Made by a program: the position numbers and the translations under genes. Source: an uncultured archaeon (GTDB lineage: Archaea; Asgardarchaeota; Hermodarchaeia; Hermodarchaeales; Hermodarchaeaceae). Taken from it: a stretch of 64,000 bases of DNA. Shown piece by piece: positions 11,772 to 23,062 of this stretch. The stretch covers positions 70,701-134,700 of the forward strand of contig CAYFXC010000003.1 in the NCBI GenBank assembly GCA_964347045.1. The letters run 5' to 3'. The notes beneath the pieces are model-generated. The model ran no database searches and was not told where the DNA came from. It worked only from the letters and a program-made list of their open reading frames with translations. Every line of letters begins with the position of its first letter. Position 1 is the stretch's first letter.

Positions 11772-12167
11772 CTACTCTTCAGTTTTTTCCGCCTGCTCTG
11801 GCTCCTCTGATACTACGAATAAATGCTCATCATTCAAGGTGAAAGCGGCTAATTCAAACTTACCTGTCATGGTTATTGCTTTCTTTGGGCAAACCGCCTC
11901 ACAGGTTCCACACCAAATACAGCGGTCGAAGCGAAATTGGGGCTTCTTTTTGGTTTTAGTCTTCGTGGCTTCAACCATTTCGATGGCTGTTGCAGGGCAG
12001 TCGCGGCTGCAGAGTCCGCAGCCGGTGCATTTTTCGATATCGTGTTCGATTTTACCGCGGAGGCGTTCGGGGCGAACGGCTTCTTGAAAAGGATAGCGAA
12101 TCGTGGCAGTTTTTCGTCTGAGGACGGTGCCAAGAATTTCGCCTTCCATTGCTCCAGGTCGTGGCAT
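11772..12167 (-). CDS. NuoI/MbhN-like 2x[4Fe-4S] subunit of a membrane-bound hydrogenase
   Basis: TIRYPF..RG, CTGCGLCSRDCP, CIWCGTCEAVCP. Confidence 0.9.
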   Translation of the reverse strand: MPRPGAMEGEILGTVLRRKTATIRYPFQEAVRPERLRGKIEHDIEKCTGCGLCSRDCPATAIEMVEATKTKTKKKPQFRFDRCIWCGTCEAVCPKKAITMTGKFELAAFTLNDEHLFVVSEEPEQAEKTEE

Positions 12168-12179
12168 TTTTTTACACTC

Positions 12180-13361
12180 CTAAGGTAAGATGGCGACAAT
12201 CCAGTCCATGATGAATGGCCAGGCTAAAAGGATGCCGACCATGAGGAGGCTGAAGGGAATAACCCATTTCCAGCTATCACGGGCGATTTGGTCAATTCGC
12301 CATCGAGAGAAGAGGGCTTTCATATTGGATAGGATCAAGACAATGGCGGTGGTTTTGACGATGAACCAGAAAGCGTAGTAAATGGCTGCAATTGCAGGAT
12401 TGAGTAATAAGGGCATATTGGTGATAATCCAAGCCATATAATGTCCAGAGTTGATGGTGATCCCATGCACGAAACCACCATTGGCAATGAAGATGAAGAA
12501 GATTTCTGGTCCAAGAGGGCCTCCCAGGAAAACGGCTGTACCCAATGCGGAGGCGAGGAGAACTTCAAAGTTATTGGAGAGTCGGAAGAAGGCAAGTTTC
12601 TTCCCGGAGAATTCGGTTTCCCAACCGCCAACAATTTCAGTTTCAGCAATGGGTGCATCAAAGGGTATGCGTTCGGCTTCTGCTTGTGCAGCGATCAGGA
12701 AGACAATGAAGAGTCCAATGAATGCTGGGTTAAAGATTAGGGGTAACCCAAGGTTTGCTTGGTATACGACGACGCCTGTAAGGCTCAAACTCCCTGCTAC
12801 CATTCCCGCCGCAAACAGTGCGAGGAGTAACGGAATTTCATATGCGAGCATCTGGACGATGCCACGTACTGCTCCAGTAAAGCCAAACCGGTTTGACGAT
12901 GACCAGCCGGCGATAAACAGCATTATGGTGAACATAGTGCTGAAGAAGCCGATCATAAGTAAATCGCCTTCAAAATACATGATGCCCGTTACTGTAAAGA
13001 ATGGCGTCTGAGAAATCGCTATCGGAACTAGCATAAGCACGGAGATGGGAATTGCCAAAGCTAGAATGGGGGTCAGCGTAAAGCCGATTTTATCTGCGGC
13101 TACTGGGGTTACATCCTCTTTAGCCATCAACTTGACAAAATCTGCGAAGGGTTGAAGGATGCCTCGCCAGCCTGTATGTAATGGACCGATGCGGTGGTGT
13201 TGGTCGGCATAGAATTTGCGGTCAATCCATTCAATATAGAAGGCATATCCTGTTAGGAACAGGAACCCAGGAAAGATTATAATCATCAGTAGTGTGACGA
13301 TTGCATTCAATGGTGGGGGTAATAGCACCTGCACATTGCGCACTCTCCAGTGGGTCATCAA
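12180..13361 (-). CDS. NuoH/MbhM-like (complex I subunit 1) membrane subunit
   Basis: DRKF..HRIGP..GILQPFADFVKL.KE, QMLAYEIP, RIPFDAPIAETEIVGG, RWRIDQ. Confidence 0.93.
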   Translation of the reverse strand: MMTHWRVRNVQVLLPPPLNAIVTLLMIIIFPGFLFLTGYAFYIEWIDRKFYADQHHRIGPLHTGWRGILQPFADFVKLMAKEDVTPVAADKIGFTLTPILALAIPISVLMLVPIAISQTPFFTVTGIMYFEGDLLMIGFFSTMFTIMLFIAGWSSSNRFGFTGAVRGIVQMLAYEIPLLLALFAAGMVAGSLSLTGVVVYQANLGLPLIFNPAFIGLFIVFLIAAQAEAERIPFDAPIAETEIVGGWETEFSGKKLAFFRLSNNFEVLLASALGTAVFLGGPLGPEIFFIFIANGGFVHGITINSGHYMAWIITNMPLLLNPAIAAIYYAFWFIVKTTAIVLILSNMKALFSRWRIDQIARDSWKWVIPFSLLMVGILLAWPFIMDWIVAILP

Positions 13362-13552: not shown

Positions 13553-14086
13553 ATGAGTGGTGTTCAAAATTCTCGACTTGAAACGCTTCTCCTCATGGGC
13601 AGTAAAGCCTTCAAAGCTCAGACTTTACCTGTTGAAATTATCACTCGTCTCAACGCGGCCCTGGATCGAAATATGAGAATCATTGTTGGTGAAGCGCCTG
13701 GTGCAAATCATGTCTTCCAAGACTATTTGGCATCACAAAACTACCGCAACGTACTCGTTGGTCATGCACGAAGCATTCGCTACAATGCAGGAAACTGGGA
13801 GACTAAACAATATGGCGACAATGTTCGTGAACGGGAAAAAGGAATGATTTCCGAATGCGATGAAGCCATCATCATCTGGGTCAACAACAGCAGCGTCATC
13901 GCCACCAACCTCGAACGCCTTAAAGAACTCGGCATACCCACCTTTCTCTACGAATATTCTCAATCAACACAAAAAGCCCAAGCAGGTATGCTCGATCCCT
14001 CTCGTACCTATGACCCTAACTACCGCCGGTACAAATACTTCAAACGAAAAAATGCAAGCAACTACGATATGCCCCTAAACGGTTAA
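13553..14086 (+). CDS. Putative SLOG-superfamily (YspA-like) protein
   Basis: LMGSK..., IIVGEAPGAN, RE..MI..CDEAIIIW resembles the SLOG Rossmannoid pattern. Confidence 0.5.
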   Translation: MSGVQNSRLETLLLMGSKAFKAQTLPVEIITRLNAALDRNMRIIVGEAPGANHVFQDYLASQNYRNVLVGHARSIRYNAGNWETKQYGDNVREREKGMISECDEAIIIWVNNSSVIATNLERLKELGIPTFLYEYSQSTQKAQAGMLDPSRTYDPNYRRYKYFKRKNASNYDMPLNG

Positions 14087-14253: not shown

Positions 14254-14952
14254 GTGAAACGTTGGCCTCGAGTAAAAACTGTTGCTATCGCCGCCTTGAT
14301 ATCATTGGCAATTTTTTCTATAACGATTCTCAATTACCCTGAACCGTTGGTCCGTCGATTATCTTGGCTGACTCATCCAGGTGCCTATGCTATCTATACA
14401 CGAGGACGGACCTACGAATTGACCAATGGGTCAATCCGTATGGACGTCATTGACGGCACACCAATTACCACATCTATCCAAGTTTCAACATGGAACGGTT
14501 CACATTGGTGCACTCCAACCATTTTCCATGATCTCCCCATCCATCATTCTACCTCTTTTTGGGTAGCCAATGATCTTCTTGTCGGTGGTAGGCTCAACAA
14601 CCTTATCATTAATCACACTTCGGAAATCCTTGAAATATGGCACGATTATGATGAAGCTGACGAAGGCAACTCCGGACAATACGTTGTAAGTGTCAAATCC
14701 GTCACCCCAGGCCTCAGCCTCTTCGTTGGACGCTTTGCCGTCGAATGCGGATTAGTTACCGGCTGGTACTACCCCGAATTCTACCGCCTATACGAAACCA
14801 ACCTATTCCTCGGCATCTACACCCTCTTTATAGGCTACCCCATCTTCGGAATACTCGTCTTAGCCCCTGTCATCCTCATGATTACCTCAATCCTTCTCAT
14901 CTACGAAGGCTTACGCTACCTCCAACACTTACCACGCAAATCCTTGAAATAA
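14254..14952 (+). CDS. Hypothetical membrane protein
   Basis: N-terminal and C-terminal hydrophobic segments flanking a soluble beta-rich domain. Confidence 0.6.
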   Translation: MKRWPRVKTVAIAALISLAIFSITILNYPEPLVRRLSWLTHPGAYAIYTRGRTYELTNGSIRMDVIDGTPITTSIQVSTWNGSHWCTPTIFHDLPIHHSTSFWVANDLLVGGRLNNLIINHTSEILEIWHDYDEADEGNSGQYVVSVKSVTPGLSLFVGRFAVECGLVTGWYYPEFYRLYETNLFLGIYTLFIGYPIFGILVLAPVILMITSILLIYEGLRYLQHLPRKSLK

Positions 14953-15059: not shown

Positions 15060-16103
15060 ATGAAATGTCCACTCAAGGATCAAGGACTTGAACGCGGAGC
15101 CTGTCAAACCAGAACCTGTGATGGTCAGTCACAGCCTGCCTGTCAGGTAACCCTTCGAAAAAACAAAAACGGAATGTTCGAACGACTTATACGATCTATG
15201 CATCTCAGTCGACCGGAAGACTACTTTTCCGTATACCAGAGTGGATGCAATCACACGTGTTTGAAATGTCATTCGGCGGAGTTCAGTAAAACAGCAAATG
15301 GCGAATGGATTTCCACACATGAATTAGCCCTCATTTCAAAAGACTATCGTCAAGAAGTAACTGTTTGGGAACCTCGAGAACGGGCAACCATGTGGCACGC
15401 AGGAACCCTTTGTAAGCATTGTGGATCCTGTCGACTCACCGGTCTTCACTCACCCCAATGCCCACAGACACTAGACCCAACGCAAATTACCCGATCTGTC
15501 CAAGGCTATGGTCCTGCACGCAATATCATCGCCTTTACTGGGGGCGACTTAGGTTGTCACCCTGAGTATTACGCTGAAGCAGCCCACGCCATCAAAACCG
15601 CTGCAGGAAACAATATGTGGGTGCTCTTCGAAACTAATGGGTATGCCTTAACACAACCGAATCTACAAATTCTCAAGGACGGTGGTGTCGATGCCTTCTG
15701 GCTCGACATCAAAGCCCACAATCCCAAGATATACAAAAAACTCTGCGGCACCTCCAATAAAACAGTCTTAGACTCCATATCGTTGAGCCATGATGCAGGG
15801 TTTGTGCTTGAAATCCTCACCCTCTACATCCCCGGATGGGTGGAAACCGACCAACACACCGCCATTGCCCAACTCATCGCTGAAACTGACCCCACCATTC
15901 CTACAACACTCCTCGCCTTCTTTCCAACCTACCACCTTTCCCACGAAAAACCTCCTTCTCTTCAAGAAATAGTCCAAAGTGCCCAAGCCATGCAACAACA
16001 AGGCCTAACCAACCTACGTCTAGGCAACATCGGCGTTTTTGTCAAAACCCAGTACGACTACGAATTTCTCACCACAAACTTGACAGACATATCCATCGGG
16101 TGA
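15060..16103 (+). CDS. Radical SAM protein (PFL-activase-like fold) with extra Cys motifs
   Basis: CNHTCLKC, AFTGGD, ETNGY, WLDIKA; extra CKHCGSC. Confidence 0.88.
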   Translation: MKCPLKDQGLERGACQTRTCDGQSQPACQVTLRKNKNGMFERLIRSMHLSRPEDYFSVYQSGCNHTCLKCHSAEFSKTANGEWISTHELALISKDYRQEVTVWEPRERATMWHAGTLCKHCGSCRLTGLHSPQCPQTLDPTQITRSVQGYGPARNIIAFTGGDLGCHPEYYAEAAHAIKTAAGNNMWVLFETNGYALTQPNLQILKDGGVDAFWLDIKAHNPKIYKKLCGTSNKTVLDSISLSHDAGFVLEILTLYIPGWVETDQHTAIAQLIAETDPTIPTTLLAFFPTYHLSHEKPPSLQEIVQSAQAMQQQGLTNLRLGNIGVFVKTQYDYEFLTTNLTDISIG

Positions 16104-16169
16104 AACAAAAAATCTAATCATAGCTATCGGCATACTCGATGTTCACGACCCGATAAGGCCACCAAGCTA

Positions 16170-16276
16170 CTACCGACCCCAAGCTTTTCCTCTTTCAACT
16201 CTTCACGATTCTGCTCCTGAATCCACGTCCATGGCTTCTTCTCCTCCAATCCATAAAAATACCCAAAGATAATTCC
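16170..16276 (-). pseudogene. Decayed duplicate of the 3' end of the hydrogenase large-subunit gene
   Basis: Translates as GIIFGYFYGLEEKKPWTWIQEQNREELK/(frameshift)/GKAWGR*, versus RIILSYPDGKQEEKPWAWFQEKSREERNRIKAWRR* at 21857-21964. Hand count is ~69/108 nt identical with one 1-nt gap. Confidence 0.8.
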
Positions 16277-16397
16277 GTTCAAACTGAACACGTAGCCTAA
16301 TTAGCCATCACCATAAACACCCCCATTTTTCTGCCATAACATTTAACAACTGATGCTAATCTGAAACATCATCATCACAGATTATTAGGGTAAGTCC

Positions 16398-17669
16398 ATG
16401 GTTCACCAAATCTTCAGACGGAATCTCGATAAATGCTGGAATTGTGGGTTTTGTACTGAAACGGTAGATTGTCCGAGTCCCCAAGTATGTATTGGATGCC
16501 AAGCATGCTACTTGGCATGCTATAGAGAAGCTATCGAACCAATTGAACAAACATTGGACAATGAAATTACAATTATGCTGGATGAAAAGCCTGTTACTGT
16601 ACCAAGCCAAGTCACTATTAAAACGGCTCTTGAAACGCTGGGCATCCGATTTTCCCGGTTTCCTGATTCACACGACCTATTTACCCCTTGCCAGACTGGT
16701 GGGTGTTATTCCTGTTTAGTTTCCGTTGATGGTGAAATTCTTCCCTGCTGTCACACACCAGTAAAATCGGGTCAACACATTCGAACAAAGATAGCCGACG
16801 ATTTCGTACCCCGCAGAATTGTTGGATGGTATAGCCCTCACCCAGTTGGCGGGGTTGGAACTCCGTGGAGTGCGAAAAATCTTGGCAGAACCCGGCACTC
16901 ATACATTGAAGTAGCTTGTTTCAGCGCAGGGTGCAACCTTAGATGTAAAACTTGTCAGAACTTTGATACAACCTATAATAGTCGTGCACCAGCCGTCACG
17001 CCCAATGAAGCTGCCGAAATCCTAACGAAACTTCGTCAGAAATCCCATGTCAACCGTCTTGCTATTTCGGGTGGTGAACCGACCCTCAACCGAAAGTGGC
17101 TGATCGAGTTTTTCAAGGAACTCAATCATCTCAACCCAGACCCGAAAGCCCGGTTGCATTTGGACACTAATGCCTCAATTCTGACTCCCGATTACATTGA
17201 TGAACTAATATTGGCAGGTATAACTGACATTGGACCTGATCTGAAAGCCGTTCAGGTTGCTACTTACCAAACAATCACAAATATTTCCGACCCTAATCTA
17301 GCCCAAAAATATCTGGATACATCTTGGGCCGCTGTCAAACATCTGGCCAATCATTATTATCCAAATCAAATCTTCATGGGTGTTGGATTACCTTACAACG
17401 CGGCATTCTTTCCCTCTCAACAACAGAAAGAAACCGAACTTCACCAATGGGGAACCCGACTACATGCCATTGATGATCGAATCCAAGTTTGCATTCTCGA
17501 TTACCGTCCAACCTTCCGACGCCGAGATATCCACCGTCCAACAATTGAAGAAATACGAGCTGTCAAGAAGTTACTCGAAGGAGTAGGACTCCAAACAGTC
17601 ATCGCCCAAACACAACTCGGTCACCTACCTCCCAAACAACCAGCGCCTGATCGTACACTGCCTCGATAG
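16398..17669 (+). CDS. Radical SAM protein with N-terminal 4Fe-4S and 2Fe-2S ferredoxin-like domains
   Basis: CWNCGFC/CIGCQACYLAC, CQTGGCYSC..CC, CNLRCKTC, ISGGEPT, DTNAS. Confidence 0.88.
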   Translation: MVHQIFRRNLDKCWNCGFCTETVDCPSPQVCIGCQACYLACYREAIEPIEQTLDNEITIMLDEKPVTVPSQVTIKTALETLGIRFSRFPDSHDLFTPCQTGGCYSCLVSVDGEILPCCHTPVKSGQHIRTKIADDFVPRRIVGWYSPHPVGGVGTPWSAKNLGRTRHSYIEVACFSAGCNLRCKTCQNFDTTYNSRAPAVTPNEAAEILTKLRQKSHVNRLAISGGEPTLNRKWLIEFFKELNHLNPDPKARLHLDTNASILTPDYIDELILAGITDIGPDLKAVQVATYQTITNISDPNLAQKYLDTSWAAVKHLANHYYPNQIFMGVGLPYNAAFFPSQQQKETELHQWGTRLHAIDDRIQVCILDYRPTFRRRDIHRPTIEEIRAVKKLLEGVGLQTVIAQTQLGHLPPKQPAPDRTLPR

Positions 17670-18201: not shown

Positions 18202-18591
18202 CAGCGACAAATCACTAATTGCCTTTCGCAATTACTAGCACCAACTGACTCGGAATCCTTCCTCAGCTGGTATGATTCAAGGAGATCCGAACTTGATGAG
18301 TGGTTCTTCGAAAGCCTAGAAAGAATGAAACTAGAAGTAAGCGAATCTGGCTACGGCAATGTGAAACTATCACGACCCTTCGATATTGAATATATACGGC
18401 GATTCTTCCAAGACATGGACGTCTATACAGAAGCCAACCTGGCCAGCATCATCGTGAAAAAGAATAGCAATATCTTCATCTATGCAGAACCAAACGACAG
18501 CCAAAGAATCGCCTTCGGCCCAGTCATGGACTATGAGCTCCTCGTCTTAGTCTTCAAATACATACGACAGGTCATGACCCGCAACGCATAA
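18202..18591 (+). pseudogene. Hypothetical protein, probably 5'-truncated
   Basis: The ATG ORF 18325-18591 continues in frame upstream to 18202 (..SESFLSWYDSRRSELDEWFFESLER) with no start codon, reaching almost to msrB. Confidence 0.4.
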
Positions 18592-19859: not shown

Positions 19860-21830
19860 ATGACCGATTCCCAAAATCAACCTCAACATGCTCCGCATCC
19901 CCCAACTTCTTTTCTTCCCCGTTCTACACACAGCCCCGAAGCTCAACACCTTCTCAATATCTATGGATTCACCGCTTGGAATACTCTCGAACGCGACCTC
20001 AACCGCCACCCCTATCTTAGACACCGCACTACCTTCCCCCTAGCCTACACACACGCCCTCTGGCACCGTATCCTCACTGCTGCTCGTAATGACGGACACC
20101 TCACCGACACCACCTACAAATCCCTCGAAACTATCACCGGCATCCCCGCTGGACGACTCCGCGACTGGCGTCTCGGCGAAAAAGAACCCCACCTCGAACG
20201 CACTCTCCAAATCCACGAAACCGCCCGACAATACTGGGAACACACCCTCCCCCAAGAAGCCAAACAACACCTCATTGATCCCTCCCTTGTCTACACCACC
20301 TTCCACCCCCTCCTTGACCACACCGAAACACATACTCTCGAAGCCCCTACCACCGGCATCAAAACCCTCTATCACCACAACAAAAACCAACGCCTCATAA
20401 TCGCCGAACTCAAACCCTACCACAAAACCGGACCCCAACAACTCCGCACCATCGCCCACGCAATCATTGAACATCGATCTGAACTCGAACACAAACTCAC
20501 CAAACGGCTAAATCTCCCCAACACCCACGAAGAACTCCGGATCGCCGTCGACCACGGCACCCTCTACCTCTGGCGCAAAACCACCCACCCCGACCACTGG
20601 CTCAACACCTATAGAAACGAACTCCTCTACCTTACACCCAAAATCAAAGAAGACCTCATCAACAAGGCACGACGCCACCTCAACGTCAATACCCAACAAC
20701 TCGGACAACTCCTCGCCCAACTCACCGACCACAAAGGTGAACGAAGCCACACTCCACGAGCCGCACCCTACGAACTCACACACTTCAGTCCCAGTCTCCA
20801 CGGCAACACCCTCCACCTTCTCCTCGACGCAGCCGACCAAACGGTCGATGCAATCAAACCGTATATTACCCAAATCGGACGCATCGCCAACCACGAAAAA
20901 GGTGGAGGTATCCAAAATCCACGTTTCCCCCAAGGCAGAGAACTCGACATATTACGCGCACGTCTTCTTGCTATCGGACTCAGCGATTGTCATATCCACA
21001 AAGACACTCGTGTAATGTCTTATCATGAAAACGATCTAAATCGCATTAGGTATGTGACTAGTTTATTCCGAAGACTAGGGGATTGTACTTACAAACTTGA
21101 ATTCCTCCGGGGAAATCGCACCCGTCTAACCATAACTGCTCCTGTGGGACGGCTTCTCGAATATTGGGGCGTCCCACGCGGCGATAAGCATCTTTACCCT
21201 AATGCTAGATTACCCGAAGTGGTTCGTTTGGGGAAACCCAAAGTGAAGCAAGCCTACCTCGCTGAAGTAATCCCCGAAGATGGATTTTTTGTCAATCGCG
21301 CAGGTGCTTACAAATTTGGGATTAAACGAGCCCAAATTCTCGACGCCGGTTTAAAATCAAAAATTTATGGCTATCCTACAAAAATTACTCCGAAACATAC
21401 AGGTTTGATTAAAAAATATGGAGTAAAGCGAAAACAAGCAATACGGGACAATAGACCACGAAACGAAATAACATTGACAAAAGGGAGGTTAAAAGAATTA
21501 ATCAGAAAAGGAGAAACGCAAAAAGATCAACACATAGCTCAACAATTGGAAGTAATAATCAAGACAAATCCTTCTCAGTTACTTAAAGACGAAAAGGAGC
21601 TGGCAGAAAGCTTAGGGATCAAGATGCAAATGATTTTCAAAGAACTTAAACTCCAAGAATCTGGGCGAGTCTCTACCCTCTGGGAAATCTATACCAAATC
21701 CTCAACAGACACTCTTCAATGGGCAACCCTTGCAGAACCAAGCTCTGGAGAAAAACAGAGTGCAGTGAGAGATTGGATTATCAAATACCAAGGAAAGAAT
21801 TCTATAGATTCTACTAAGGCGGAGCTATAG
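19860..21830 (+). CDS. HTH + LAGLIDADG (DOD) homing-endonuclease-like protein
   Basis: HTH-like YKSLETITGIPAGRLRDWRLG. Two LAGLIDADG-like helices (LLAIGLSDCHI and AYLAEVIPEDGFF), the second preceded by the intein-endonuclease-type K....RLPEVV..G.P.VK linker. No splicing domain. Confidence 0.6.
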   Translation: MTDSQNQPQHAPHPPTSFLPRSTHSPEAQHLLNIYGFTAWNTLERDLNRHPYLRHRTTFPLAYTHALWHRILTAARNDGHLTDTTYKSLETITGIPAGRLRDWRLGEKEPHLERTLQIHETARQYWEHTLPQEAKQHLIDPSLVYTTFHPLLDHTETHTLEAPTTGIKTLYHHNKNQRLIIAELKPYHKTGPQQLRTIAHAIIEHRSELEHKLTKRLNLPNTHEELRIAVDHGTLYLWRKTTHPDHWLNTYRNELLYLTPKIKEDLINKARRHLNVNTQQLGQLLAQLTDHKGERSHTPRAAPYELTHFSPSLHGNTLHLLLDAADQTVDAIKPYITQIGRIANHEKGGGIQNPRFPQGRELDILRARLLAIGLSDCHIHKDTRVMSYHENDLNRIRYVTSLFRRLGDCTYKLEFLRGNRTRLTITAPVGRLLEYWGVPRGDKHLYPNARLPEVVRLGKPKVKQAYLAEVIPEDGFFVNRAGAYKFGIKRAQILDAGLKSKIYGYPTKITPKHTGLIKKYGVKRKQAIRDNRPRNEITLTKGRLKELIRKGETQKDQHIAQQLEVIIKTNPSQLLKDEKELAESLGIKMQMIFKELKLQESGRVSTLWEIYTKSSTDTLQWATLAEPSSGEKQSAVRDWIIKYQGKNSIDSTKAEL

Positions 21831-21856
21831 AAAATGCTGAGAGGCAATCAAGGCAA

Positions 21857-23062
21857 TTAACGGCGCCAAGCTTTGATTCGGTTCCGTTCTTCTCGACTCT
21901 TCTCTTGGAACCATGCCCAGGGCTTCTCTTCTTGCTTCCCATCGGGGTATGAAAGTATAATTCGGTCAGTGCAGGAGAAGCAGGGGTCTATCGAAGCCAG
22001 GGCGATGGGGATGTCGGCGATTTTGCCGCCTTTGAGCATTTCGATGACGCTGGGGATGTTGGCGTAGGTGGGGGCGCGGGCTTTGTGGCGTTCGGGTTTG
22101 TCGGTGCCGTTGCTGACGACGTAGTGGAGGACTTCGCCGCGGGGGGCTTCGAAGGTGCTGAGGGCGTGGCCGGGTGGGATGCGGCGGGGGGTGCGGGTGC
22201 TGATGTCGCCTGTGGGGAGGGTGGTGAGCCAGTGGGTGACGGTGGTGCAGGCGTCGAGGGTTTCGAGCATGCGGACGACGACGCGGCCGGCGACGTCGCA
22301 CATGTCGGAGGTGCGGACTTCCCAGGTGGTGCCGAGGGTTTCTTGGTAGGGGGTGCGGGGTTGGGTGGCGCGGACGTCCCAGTCGATGTTGGAGGCGCGG
22401 GCGGTGGGTCCGGTGGCGCAGAGGGCTTTGCCGACGTCGGTTTTGAGGATGCCGACGCCGATGGCGCGGTCGAGGATCGTTTGTTCGGCTAACACGAGTT
22501 TGATGTAGTGGTTGACGCGGTCTTTGATTTTTTCCAGGCGGTCTACCATGCTGGGGATTTGGCTTTTCTCGATGTCGTGGCGGACGCCGCCGATGATGTT
22601 GTTGGCGTAGTTGACGCGGTTCCCACAGATTTCTTCGATCATGTCCATGCTTAATTCGCGGTCCCGCCAGGAATAATGGAACAGGGTATCCCAGCCGATT
22701 TCGTGGCCGGCTATGCCGAGCCAGAGGATGTGGCTGTGGATGCGGTTGAGCTCGTTCATGATGGCACGAATGTACAAACCCCGTTTGGGAACATCCAAGT
22801 CCAGAATCTCTTCGACGGCTTGAACATATGTTGTGGTGTGGGCTTGAGAGCAAATCCCGCAAATGCGTTCGGCGAGGTAAATGTTTTGGCTAAAACTTCG
22901 ACTTTCAAAGGCTTTTTCGATGCCGCGATGGACATAGCCGATTCGCGCTTCGACGTCGACAACAATTTCTCCGTCGACGGTGATGGTGAAGTTTTCCGGC
23001 TCCTTGAGTGCGGGGTGTTGGGGACCGATGGGGATGGTCATCGTTGTGGGTGGTTTAGCCAT
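21857..23062 (-). CDS. Group 4 (Ech/Mbh-type) [NiFe]-hydrogenase large subunit
   Basis: GPQHP, GYVHRGIEK, L1 motif ERICGIC, EAPRGE, L2 motif DPCFSCTDR, plus a C-terminal extension. Confidence 0.95.
   Translation of the reverse strand: MAKPPTTMTIPIGPQHPALKEPENFTITVDGEIVVDVEARIGYVHRGIEKAFESRSFSQNIYLAERICGICSQAHTTTYVQAVEEILDLDVPKRGLYIRAIMNELNRIHSHILWLGIAGHEIGWDTLFHYSWRDRELSMDMIEEICGNRVNYANNIIGGVRHDIEKSQIPSMVDRLEKIKDRVNHYIKLVLAEQTILDRAIGVGILKTDVGKALCATGPTARASNIDWDVRATQPRTPYQETLGTTWEVRTSDMCDVAGRVVVRMLETLDACTTVTHWLTTLPTGDISTRTPRRIPPGHALSTFEAPRGEVLHYVVSNGTDKPERHKARAPTYANIPSVIEMLKGGKIADIPIALASIDPCFSCTDRIILSYPDGKQEEKPWAWFQEKSREERNRIKAWRR

Follow-up and report, generated by a model that had tools for sequence, protein, structure and literature searches.

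Mirror-image strand skew around a LAGLIDADG endonuclease core at an Asgard archaeal hydrogenase locus, a possible footprint of repeated break repair

Two mirror-image tracts of extreme strand skew flank an unskewed centre in the 64,000-nucleotide stretch of archaeal DNA analyzed here (hereafter, the window), and we lean toward reading them as the positional footprint of repeated endonuclease-started recombinational repair at a homing element that replaces the tail of its host gene. The left arm (19990-20900, + strand) is C/A-rich and spans codons ~50-340 of a free-standing endonuclease gene. The right arm (21967-22650) is G/T-rich on the + strand and covers codons ~134-365 of a hydrogenase gene encoded on the - strand, stopping at its DPCFSCTDR nickel-site motif. 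The centre (20950-21965) comprises the LAGLIDADG core, a 26-bp spacer, and a 36-codon hydrogenase tail.

The G+T fraction of the + strand is 0.272 in the left arm (z -6.4; A.31, C.42, G.13, T.14), an ordinary 0.452 in the centre (z -1.4), and 0.677 at 21970-22620 on the right (z +4.6; G.44, T.24, A.12, C.20). Among same-length windows across the whole genome, none of 12,548 was as extreme as the left tract, which is thus the most extreme in the genome, and 15 of 12,660 were as extreme as the right tract. GC content is 0.55 in the left arm and 0.64 in the right, against a genome value of 0.43. Four-fold sites in the left arm are C.74, A.14, G.02, and T.10, those in the right arm reach C.91 in the hydrogenase sense (that is, G.91 on the + strand), and those in the centre match the genome average. 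G+T makes up ~10% of third positions in the left arm; in the hydrogenase sense, third positions of the right arm are 80-90% C, with T at 0% over ~200 hydrogenase codons. Since G+T is only 25-35% at codon positions 1 and 2 of the left arm, its amino-acid composition is shifted as well. The right boundary falls at hydrogenase codons ~355-366 (window ~21967-22000), at the start of the 36-codon tail. Arms at skewed sites measure ~0.3-1 kb, and those here are roughly 0.7-0.9 kb each. Each of the two arms in the window is C/A-rich when read along the coding strand of the gene it covers.

The endonuclease gene, P0001 (19860..21830, + strand, 656 aa), was recognized by fold match, comparing an AlphaFold model (pLDDT 73) by Foldseek. 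Residues 1 to ~350 are helical and HTH-like, and residues ~360-600 form the LAGLIDADG core. The model matches I-Tsp061I (E 1e-5), PI-SceI, the TliVMA intein endonuclease, and I-DmoI (TM by target ~0.6); all 30 of its 30 best matches have the LAGLIDADG fold, being homing endonucleases and WhiA regulators, and the order of secondary structures across residues 360-612 fits a LAGLIDADG double fold. D376 and E473, which follow two LAGLIDADG-like helices, are invariant in all eight family members and are predicted from the model, without superposition, to be the conserved acidic residues at the helix ends. Sequence searches were less informative: Pfam gave no match to P0001 itself and only a weak LAGLIDADG_3 match in three of the eight family members (E 0.048 or weaker), and a PDB sequence-profile search with P0001 returned nothing relevant, only chance homeobox matches. 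The model supports a LAGLIDADG-fold protein, with its activity and cleavage site inferred in the absence of enzyme data. Neither tblastn nor the family HMM found a second copy of the endonuclease in the source genome (G000), hhalign showed no relation between the endonuclease family and the ORF adjoining actin, and no intein-like Hint or zinc-finger parts were detected in the element.

The neighbouring gene, P0002 (21857..23062, - strand, 401 aa), encodes the large subunit of a group-4 [NiFe]-hydrogenase (Pfam Complex1_49kDa, 1.5e-56; NiFeSe_Hases, 2e-18) and is inferred to be the target of the endonuclease. Its live C-terminal tail (codons 366-401; 21857..21966, - strand) is unskewed and conserved in all orthologues. 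A decayed, cast-off copy of this tail lies at 16199..16273 on the - strand (tblastn E 7e-4, 56% identity over 25 aa), within a C-rich non-coding patch at 16104-16397 (89 C, 33 G); on the minus strand, 22 differences from the live tail run from A/C to G/T and five in the reverse direction. This copy adjoins an older left-arm patch (15700..16350, + strand) with a GC skew of -0.42 to -0.47, and the skew scan showed weaker C/A-rich patches at the right-hand ends of cassettes (13800-14086, 14700-14952, 17480-17669, and 18325-18591). Cast-off hydrogenase tails also occur in two of the related genomes, with two in G008 and one in G014. In a third relative, G002, msrB directly follows the hydrogenase gene after a gap of ~110 bp, with neither an endonuclease gene nor a tail remnant between them; G002 thus carries a natural element-free allele.

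An earlier note, made from the sequence alone, had described paired mirror tracts with an unskewed middle, a right boundary coinciding with the edge of the duplicated tail (21964), and a remnant at 16170-16276 shifted in the same way, all of which held. Its further claim that the bias changes amino acids even in the hydrogenase was only weakly borne out. Replacements there number 26 toward A/C and 17 toward G/T, which is not significant, and the first two codon positions have a G+T of.445, versus.501 in outgroups; the shift is modest and no more than suggestive. Amino-acid divergence in the hydrogenase arm relative to a control region is 1.8x within the genus versus 1.1x among outgroups. Even where there is no skew, in the control region, congeners agree at ~0.5 of third positions, and because synonymous sites are saturated between the available species, parsimony could not polarize the substitutions.

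The hydrogenase tract recurs in 12 independently assembled relatives. Its inner end always lies at the DPCFSCTDR codons and its outer edge is variable, and it is missing from the orthologous hydrogenases of five other Asgard families. In six congeners an orthologue of the endonuclease gene faces the hydrogenase gene convergently, ORFs corresponding to only the N-terminal or only the C-terminal part occur in relatives, and the entire endonuclease gene is skewed in the sister genus. The weakest tract among the relatives is that of G002, which has no endonuclease gene. Runs X3, X8, and X9 yielded just short fragments related to the hydrogenase arm.

The same mark is found elsewhere in the genome. 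A strict two-arm scan, which set domains running from C/A to G/T against those of opposite sign, returned three of the former (the hydrogenase locus, the actin locus, and the PolD intein) and none of the latter, with the hydrogenase-locus tract being the strongest of very few in the genome. Overall, the genome has at least four two-armed sites, two of which lie inside genes (DP2 and MCM). Silent sites of the PolD subunit gene DP2 are C/A-rich before the LAGLIDADG endonuclease domain of its intein (C3 up to 80%, G3 and T3 ~0) and G/T-rich after it (four-fold sites G.88, C.00). DP2 alleles without the intein in the same family as the source genome flip at the empty site, and the flip is absent from DP2 in four other families. 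MCM flips at its P-loop, where the intein site is empty in this genome and congeners carry inteins at exactly that point. The intein-bearing MCM of G029, from an unrelated Asgard family, flips too, and intein-free MCM outgroups do not. The N-terminal part of the DP2 intein is itself skewed in both G000 and G008, and a PolB intein (contig C14) and a free-standing LAGLIDADG gene (contig C1) show weak skew. Weaker two-arm signals, which stay at candidate level, came up at SecY and at a small GTPase gene, among other places. Two candidates from the scan for flips within genes were set aside: one on contig C7 was a spurious ORF spanning an N run, and a weak case of opposite sign in a phosphoglucomutase gene was dismissed on inspection.

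These sites show that the skew tracks position rather than coding strand. Flips inside the DP2 and MCM reading frames exclude a coding-strand or codon-usage cause, non-coding spacers and the cast-off hydrogenase tail carry skew of the same sign as the arms, and ribosomal-protein genes have ordinary codons (third-position G+T.42-.50, C3.15-.27). Actin and another hydrogenase are C3-rich. The inference in the earlier note of a local, bidirectional, strand-asymmetric mutational process at the element is thus supported, with the chemistry of the bias inferred and not shown. The genome-wide skew check was favorable, such tracts being few and of one sign in the strict scan, with all strong sites agreeing in sign; the source genome holds no paralogous endonuclease, and the analogous endonuclease and intein sites show the mirror pattern; and same-family hydrogenase orthologues carry the tract at the same codon, with saturation preventing the polarization of substitutions. 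One version of the mutational idea, invoking damage to resected 3' tails, is excluded by the sign of the skew.

In the mechanism that we propose, the putative LAGLIDADG enzyme (19860-21830) would cut hydrogenase alleles at or near the DPCFSCTDR codons. The break would be repaired by copying an element-bearing allele, which would bring in a new tail together with the endonuclease core and displace the old tail; the anatomy of this replacement is shown and the process inferred. Flanking the copied core, re-synthesis would be confined to the 5'-resected strand on each side and would run 5' to 3' outward from the centre. The re-made strand would gain G, plus T at pyrimidine-only sites, and over many rounds the template would become nearly all C and A, with the core, both of whose strands would be new, staying unskewed. 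One possible source of the bias is a polymerase, acting in gap filling or at D-loops, that inserts too much G and T; another is that the displaced strand is damaged while nascent. Deamination by itself does not account for a G fraction of ~0.9 at four-fold sites. The same process would mark the intein sites of this lineage, both occupied and empty.

Several observations count against this model. Because the endonuclease ORF itself contains the left arm, the simple model requires recipients that already have the N-terminal half, that is, swapping of a core-plus-tail module. The N-only and C-only ORFs of relatives possibly support such swapping, as a hint only. The whole-gene skew in the sister genus and the skewed N-terminal part of the DP2 intein in G000 and G008 also sit poorly with the model, as do the weakly skewed PolB intein and contig C1 LAGLIDADG gene. 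Finally, reaching saturation would take either a great number of events or a step with a very high error rate.

A bolder reading can also be put forward, although we consider it tentative and would not bet on it. Here, endonuclease breaks would be repaired by strongly G-inserting, one-strand gap filling in Hermod-type archaea and in one or more further Asgard families, through a polymerase or pathway that would amount to a hypermutating repair route, lineage-restricted and so far undescribed. If this were true, each homing site, occupied or empty, would self-record the position of the break and the polarity of repair synthesis, and sequence alone would suffice to locate homing sites past and present and to delimit each element's mobile core.

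Among rival explanations, a local recombination-dependent start of replication overlaps mechanistically with the repair model, and we regard it as unlikely. Breaks would seed short bidirectional replication, with the arms representing concentrated leading-strand G/T skew, and the sign does match leading strands leaving an origin (G/T-rich 5' to 3' outward). However, the arms are merely ~0.3-1 kb long and far more strongly skewed than any replichore, several lie within essential genes, and no Orc1/Cdc6 was noted among the ORFs inspected at 11.7-27.7 kb of the window, where no dedicated search was made. On arm length and site number, a chromosomal origin does not fit: it would show a replichore-scale switch at one or a few places per genome, next to Orc1/Cdc6 and origin repeats, whereas the arms are at most ~1 kb long and occur at four or more sites, two of them intragenic.

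Similarly doubtful is the possibility that biased heteroduplex correction, or co-conversion of donor flanks that were already skewed, produced the arms without new local mutation. The tract is fixed at the insertion point with an outer boundary that varies among species, as co-conversion tracts do, and GC is elevated in both arms. However, GC-biased mismatch correction is strand-symmetric and cannot take G to ~0 on one strand, and co-conversion moves skew without creating it. Furthermore, the species resemble one another less, not more, in the amino-acid sequence of the arm, giving no sign of recent homogenization.

Selection on the arms is very unlikely. Unfoldable, A/C-only 3' tails might load recombinase better and so help the element, and after resection both retained 3' tails would indeed be the C/A-rich strands. 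The invading tails are those of the recipient, however, so the element would gain nothing, and the dead tail and spacers are skewed also, with empty sites retaining the mark.

A gene-oriented cause, in which high-expression codon bias or foreign codon usage makes the mirror a by-product of two convergent genes, draws on the C/A-richness of both window arms in gene sense and on the C3-rich actin and second hydrogenase but is all but excluded, being refuted by the flips within single reading frames of DP2 and MCM and at odds with ordinary ribosomal-protein codons, bias that is patchy inside genes, and skewed non-coding DNA. An assembly or sequencing artefact or a chimeric contig, conceivable in a metagenome-assembled draft of 83 contigs, is likewise virtually ruled out by the recurrence of the tract, at identical codon positions, in 12 genomes assembled separately, by intact reading frames, and by Logan contigs of the source sample that tile the region with no differences at an even depth of 7-9, bridging all three boundaries.

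Should the repair reading hold, the skew would be a sequence-only marker of the cut sites of selfish endonucleases, including sites that are currently empty, and homing would be loading essential host genes (hydrogenase, actin, MCM, and PolD) with large directional mutation. The arms would also serve as a naturally occurring record of how long the tracts of recombinational repair are, and of their strand polarity, in uncultured Asgard archaea, which are the closest prokaryotic relatives of eukaryotes. A warning for annotation would follow as well: the skew makes long, stop-free shadow ORFs, inflates apparent codon-bias and horizontal-transfer signals, and yields convergent third-position identity between orthologues.

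Among known systems, strand-asymmetric mutagenesis has been described flanking the programmed double-strand breaks of human meiotic hotspots (Hinch et al. 2023, PMC7615360). The archaeal site shares with these hotspots a mirror asymmetry about a fixed break, an asymmetry-free centre, and kilobase-scale flanks, and the human effect is attributed to resection and gap-filling synthesis, as we propose here. The sign is opposite, however: C and A are mutated on the retained single strand in humans, whereas the archaeal retained strand, assigned on the assumption of 5' to 3' resection from a central break, is C/A-rich. In addition, the archaeal skew saturates silent sites over evolutionary time, whereas in humans de novo mutations show no more than a small excess. 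Mutagenesis associated with HO breaks and break-induced replication in yeast is a comparable break-linked phenomenon.

The exon flanks of mobile introns evolve abnormally, with raised diversity for which mutagenic repair or co-conversion has been proposed (Repar and Warnecke 2017, PMC5378118). Both these flanks and intron or intein co-conversion tracts share with the archaeal arms a gradient away from the endonuclease insertion site. Mobile-intron studies, however, concern raised diversity rather than directional, strand-flipped composition; the word "skew" is absent from that paper, whose sole mention of asymmetry is of resection at the T4 td intron. Archaeal intein homing uses the same canonical sites (MCM P-loop and DP2), which some congeners fill and others leave empty. 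We found no description of mirror skew at homing sites, or of mirror codon skew of exteins, in the literature searched.

The closest anatomical parallel is with the LAGLIDADG-type WHO elements at FBA1 in Torulaspora and Lachancea yeasts, which replace the 3' end of the host gene at each integration (Coughlan et al. 2020, PMC7282813). The abstract and the repeated-homing section of that study make no mention of strand skew in the flanks, and, unlike WHO, the present element has an archaeal host and no detected intein-like Hint or zinc-finger parts. As with WHO, a free-standing LAGLIDADG-type gene sits beside a conserved host gene with old 3' ends left as fragments, and the WHO-like features found here comprise an endonuclease gene directly downstream, a live replacement 3' end, cast-off tails, and an element-free allele.

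The hydrogenase locus holds the strongest two-armed strand skew in the source genome (G000; draft, 2.58 Mb, 43% GC), whose actin (Pfam Actin, 1.8e-134) is consistent with an Asgard archaeon. Two convergent genes meet there at 21830/21857 of the window (G000:C3:70701–134700): P0001, a 656-aa open reading frame on the plus strand (19860–21830), and P0002, a group-4 [NiFe]-hydrogenase large subunit on the minus strand (21857–23062; Complex1_49kDa, 1.5e-56). Plus-strand G+T is 0.272 in the left arm (19990–20900; z −6.4, with no genome window as extreme), 0.452 in the centre (20950–21965; z −1.4), and 0.677 in the right arm (21970–22620; z +4.6, with 15/12,660 windows as extreme). The mirror tracts and unskewed centre described in the earlier note therefore held, as did the placing of the right-hand boundary at the edge of a duplicated tail, which lies at the DPCFSCTDR codons beginning the 36-codon hydrogenase C-terminus. 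Also upheld was a same-direction shift in the cast-off tail, a decayed second copy (16199–16273, minus strand) that differs from the live tail by 22 A/C-to-G/T changes and 5 in reverse on the minus strand, the same sign as the left arm. As a check for artefact, Logan contigs of the source sample tile the region at even depth with 0 differences, bridging all three boundaries.

Third codon positions approach saturation, with C at 80–90% and T at 0% over hydrogenase codons ~150–365. Four-fold sites carry C.74 and G.02 in the left arm, match the genome average in the centre, and reach C.91 in the hydrogenase sense, equivalent to G.91 on the plus strand, in the right arm. Because the skew removes stop codons, shadow ORFs of 135–298 aa run across both arms, out of frame with the real genes or antisense to them (20040–20933, minus strand; 21966–22862; 22085–22492), a pitfall for gene callers. 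That the bias changes amino acids even in the hydrogenase was borne out only in part. The effect is clear in the N-half of the endonuclease, which is unconstrained: the first two codon positions there contain only 25–35% G+T. It is small in the hydrogenase, where the evidence is suggestive without reaching significance: G+T at these positions is.445 versus.501 in outgroups, 26 replacements are toward A/C codons versus 17 toward G/T, and the ratio of amino-acid divergence in the arm to that in the N-terminal control region is 1.8 within the genus (1.1 in outgroups, whose saturation weakens the comparison).

Paired tracts are few genome-wide. A strict search of G000 for two-armed domains found three, all C/A-rich then G/T-rich (the hydrogenase locus, an actin locus on contig C30, and the PolD intein), and none of opposite sign, while a scan for flips within genes found PolD and MCM versus one weak opposite-sign case. 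The PolD large-subunit (DP2) gene (C1:27294–32384) carries a LAGLIDADG intein; its synonymous positions favour C and A through the N-extein flank and into the beginning of the intein (C3 reaching 80%, with G3 and T3 ~0), are neutral in the intein endonuclease domain, and favour G and T in the C-extein flank (four-fold G.88, C.00). The MCM gene of G000 has no intein and flips at its P-loop codons, the intein site in most congeners, with a second congener intein site ~80 codons later. PolD alleles without an intein in the same family likewise flip at the empty site; this was not seen in four other Asgard families. The intein-bearing MCM of G029, from an unrelated Asgard family, also flips, and MCM genes of intein-free outgroups do not. 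To the skew centres represented by intein sites, whether occupied or empty, the hydrogenase locus likely adds a third kind, the tail-replacing element. Across the LAGLIDADG intein of PolB (C14:52007–55909, codons ~481–1010), the flip is weak, so the footprint varies in strength among intein sites. Intein-free DP2 proteins of G000's family (L089–L091; G012, G017, and G018) read RRN-A-DGD at the empty site; in those of the four other Asgard families where this motif could be placed (L092–L096), it is RRN-C-DGD, and in G000 the residue following the intein is Cys. Splicing requires this +1 Cys, the loss of which could conceivably bar the intein from the site.

The hydrogenase tract is present in 12/12 same-family orthologues, each assembled separately, and absent from orthologues in five other Asgard families. 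Its end codon is constant and its 5' edge variable, ranging from the whole gene in one sister-genus genome to only ~75 codons in G002, the only genome with msrB directly after the hydrogenase gene and one lacking both endonuclease gene and cast-off tail. Given the hydrogenase, PolD, and MCM distributions among relatives, the mark probably tracks the local activity of an endonuclease or intein, and not the gene or the taxon alone.

Other skewed loci were observed in G000. At the second-strongest two-armed domain, the actin locus (L001, C30:2903–10700), C reaches 92% of third positions over actin codons 40–200, and beyond the gene the plus strand is G/T-rich for several kb, a stretch containing minus-strand cassettes; no relation to P0001 was detectable in the adjoining 377-aa ORF. 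A second [NiFe]-hydrogenase (L002, small and large subunit genes, C15:45654–48007) is C3-rich to near its 3' end, 218 bp before the contig ends, and may be another endonuclease-associated target with its partner arm unassembled. A free-standing 220-aa LAGLIDADG gene (L048, C1:236427–237086; Pfam 7e-10) centres a weak C/A-then-G/T domain.

A local, strand-asymmetric mutational process centred on the element, as previously inferred, is supported; its mechanism remains an inference. All sites, read 5' to 3' on either strand, are C/A-rich first and G/T-rich second. After a central break resected 5' to 3', the retained 3' tails would be the C/A-rich strands and the strands re-made outward the G/T-rich ones, with gap-filling or D-loop synthesis over-inserting G and T. 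Alternatively, the bias may arise from damage to the nascent displaced strand. Under the break-and-copy model, the unskewed centre would be the stretch in which both strands are newly copied, i.e., the part missing from the recipient. At the hydrogenase locus, that missing part would comprise the endonuclease core and the tail, with recipients already having the N-half, which is the model's weakest link; N-only and C-only ORFs in relatives offer a tentative hint of such module exchange. Transitions alone would be expected to give a G/T mix at four-fold sites. Weak arms show one (MCM right arm, G.32 and T.43); strong arms reach G ~.9, so the new strand must be biased still further toward G. Plain deamination does not account for this added bias and was rejected as the whole cause. 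The signal appears to point to the copying step, the chemistry of which has not been shown.

GC-biased heteroduplex correction is an improbable source of the skew, being strand-symmetric and unable to strip G from one strand. Still weaker is the proposal that the skew is codon usage and its mirror image a by-product of convergent genes: read along its own gene, each arm in the window is indeed C/A-rich, but this reading is excluded because PolD flips within one reading frame across its intein, MCM flips without one from C/A to G/T, ribosomal-protein genes show nothing unusual at third positions (G+T.42–.50, C.15–.27), and non-coding spacers in the left domain favour C over G (89:33 and 65:35). 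The skew is positional.

P0001 is likely a LAGLIDADG endonuclease, as predicted by modelling, with cleavage activity inferred. Sequence methods are almost blind to this nature, and a structure predicted from eight members of the family (pLDDT 73) had LAGLIDADG-fold proteins as its best 30/30 matches, including I-Tsp061I (E 1e-5), PI-SceI, I-DmoI (TM by target ~0.6), and WhiA regulators. D376 and E473, the acidic residues after each LAGLIDADG-like helix, are invariant in the family, which was found only in G000's archaeal family (31 genomes searched), a single genome having as many as 11 copies or fragments. Six congeners have an orthologue convergent to the hydrogenase gene. The N-half is skewed in all members and the entire gene in the sister genus. 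ORFs of the N-half alone (G006:C42, 426 aa; G016:C256, 344 aa) and C-half alone (G011:C46, 383 aa; G016:C236, 342 aa) place the join near aa 313–382, the site of the skew boundary. A mangrove-sediment contig (run X9) joins 21293, inside the endonuclease core, to 21966, the first hydrogenase-arm base, skipping 672 bases, and might represent a relative with another core-plus-tail module.

The locus runs from live tail through endonuclease gene and cargo genes to cast-off tail; further cast-off tails occur in G008 (two) and G014 (one). Third positions are C/A-rich (67–91%) at the right-hand ends of successive plus-strand cassettes (13800–14086, 14700–14952, 15700–16103, 17480–17669, and 18325–18591), minus-strand msrB is mildly C/A-rich on the plus strand (57–67%), and an older C-rich patch (15700–16350) adjoins the cast-off tail. 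This patch and the cassette ends possibly represent left arms of earlier integrations. The hydrogenase module itself is split, its NuoH-like and ferredoxin-like subunit genes (11772–13361) lying 8.5 kb from the large-subunit gene (21857–23062) across an island of SLOG-like, membrane-protein, two radical-SAM, msrB, PLD-like, and endonuclease cassettes; in G002, the gap is only ~2.4 kb.

The literature searched yielded no description of mirror-image skew around homing or intein sites, the nearest work being on raised diversity beside mobile introns (PMC5378118). At human meiotic hotspots, mutation on the retained single strand affects C and A (PMC7615360). The G000 footprint has the opposite sign, which rules out damage to resected tails as its cause. 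In anatomy, the order of live tail, endonuclease, cargo, and cast-off tail resembles that of the yeast WHO elements, which replace the 3' end of FBA1 upon each integration (PMC7282813).
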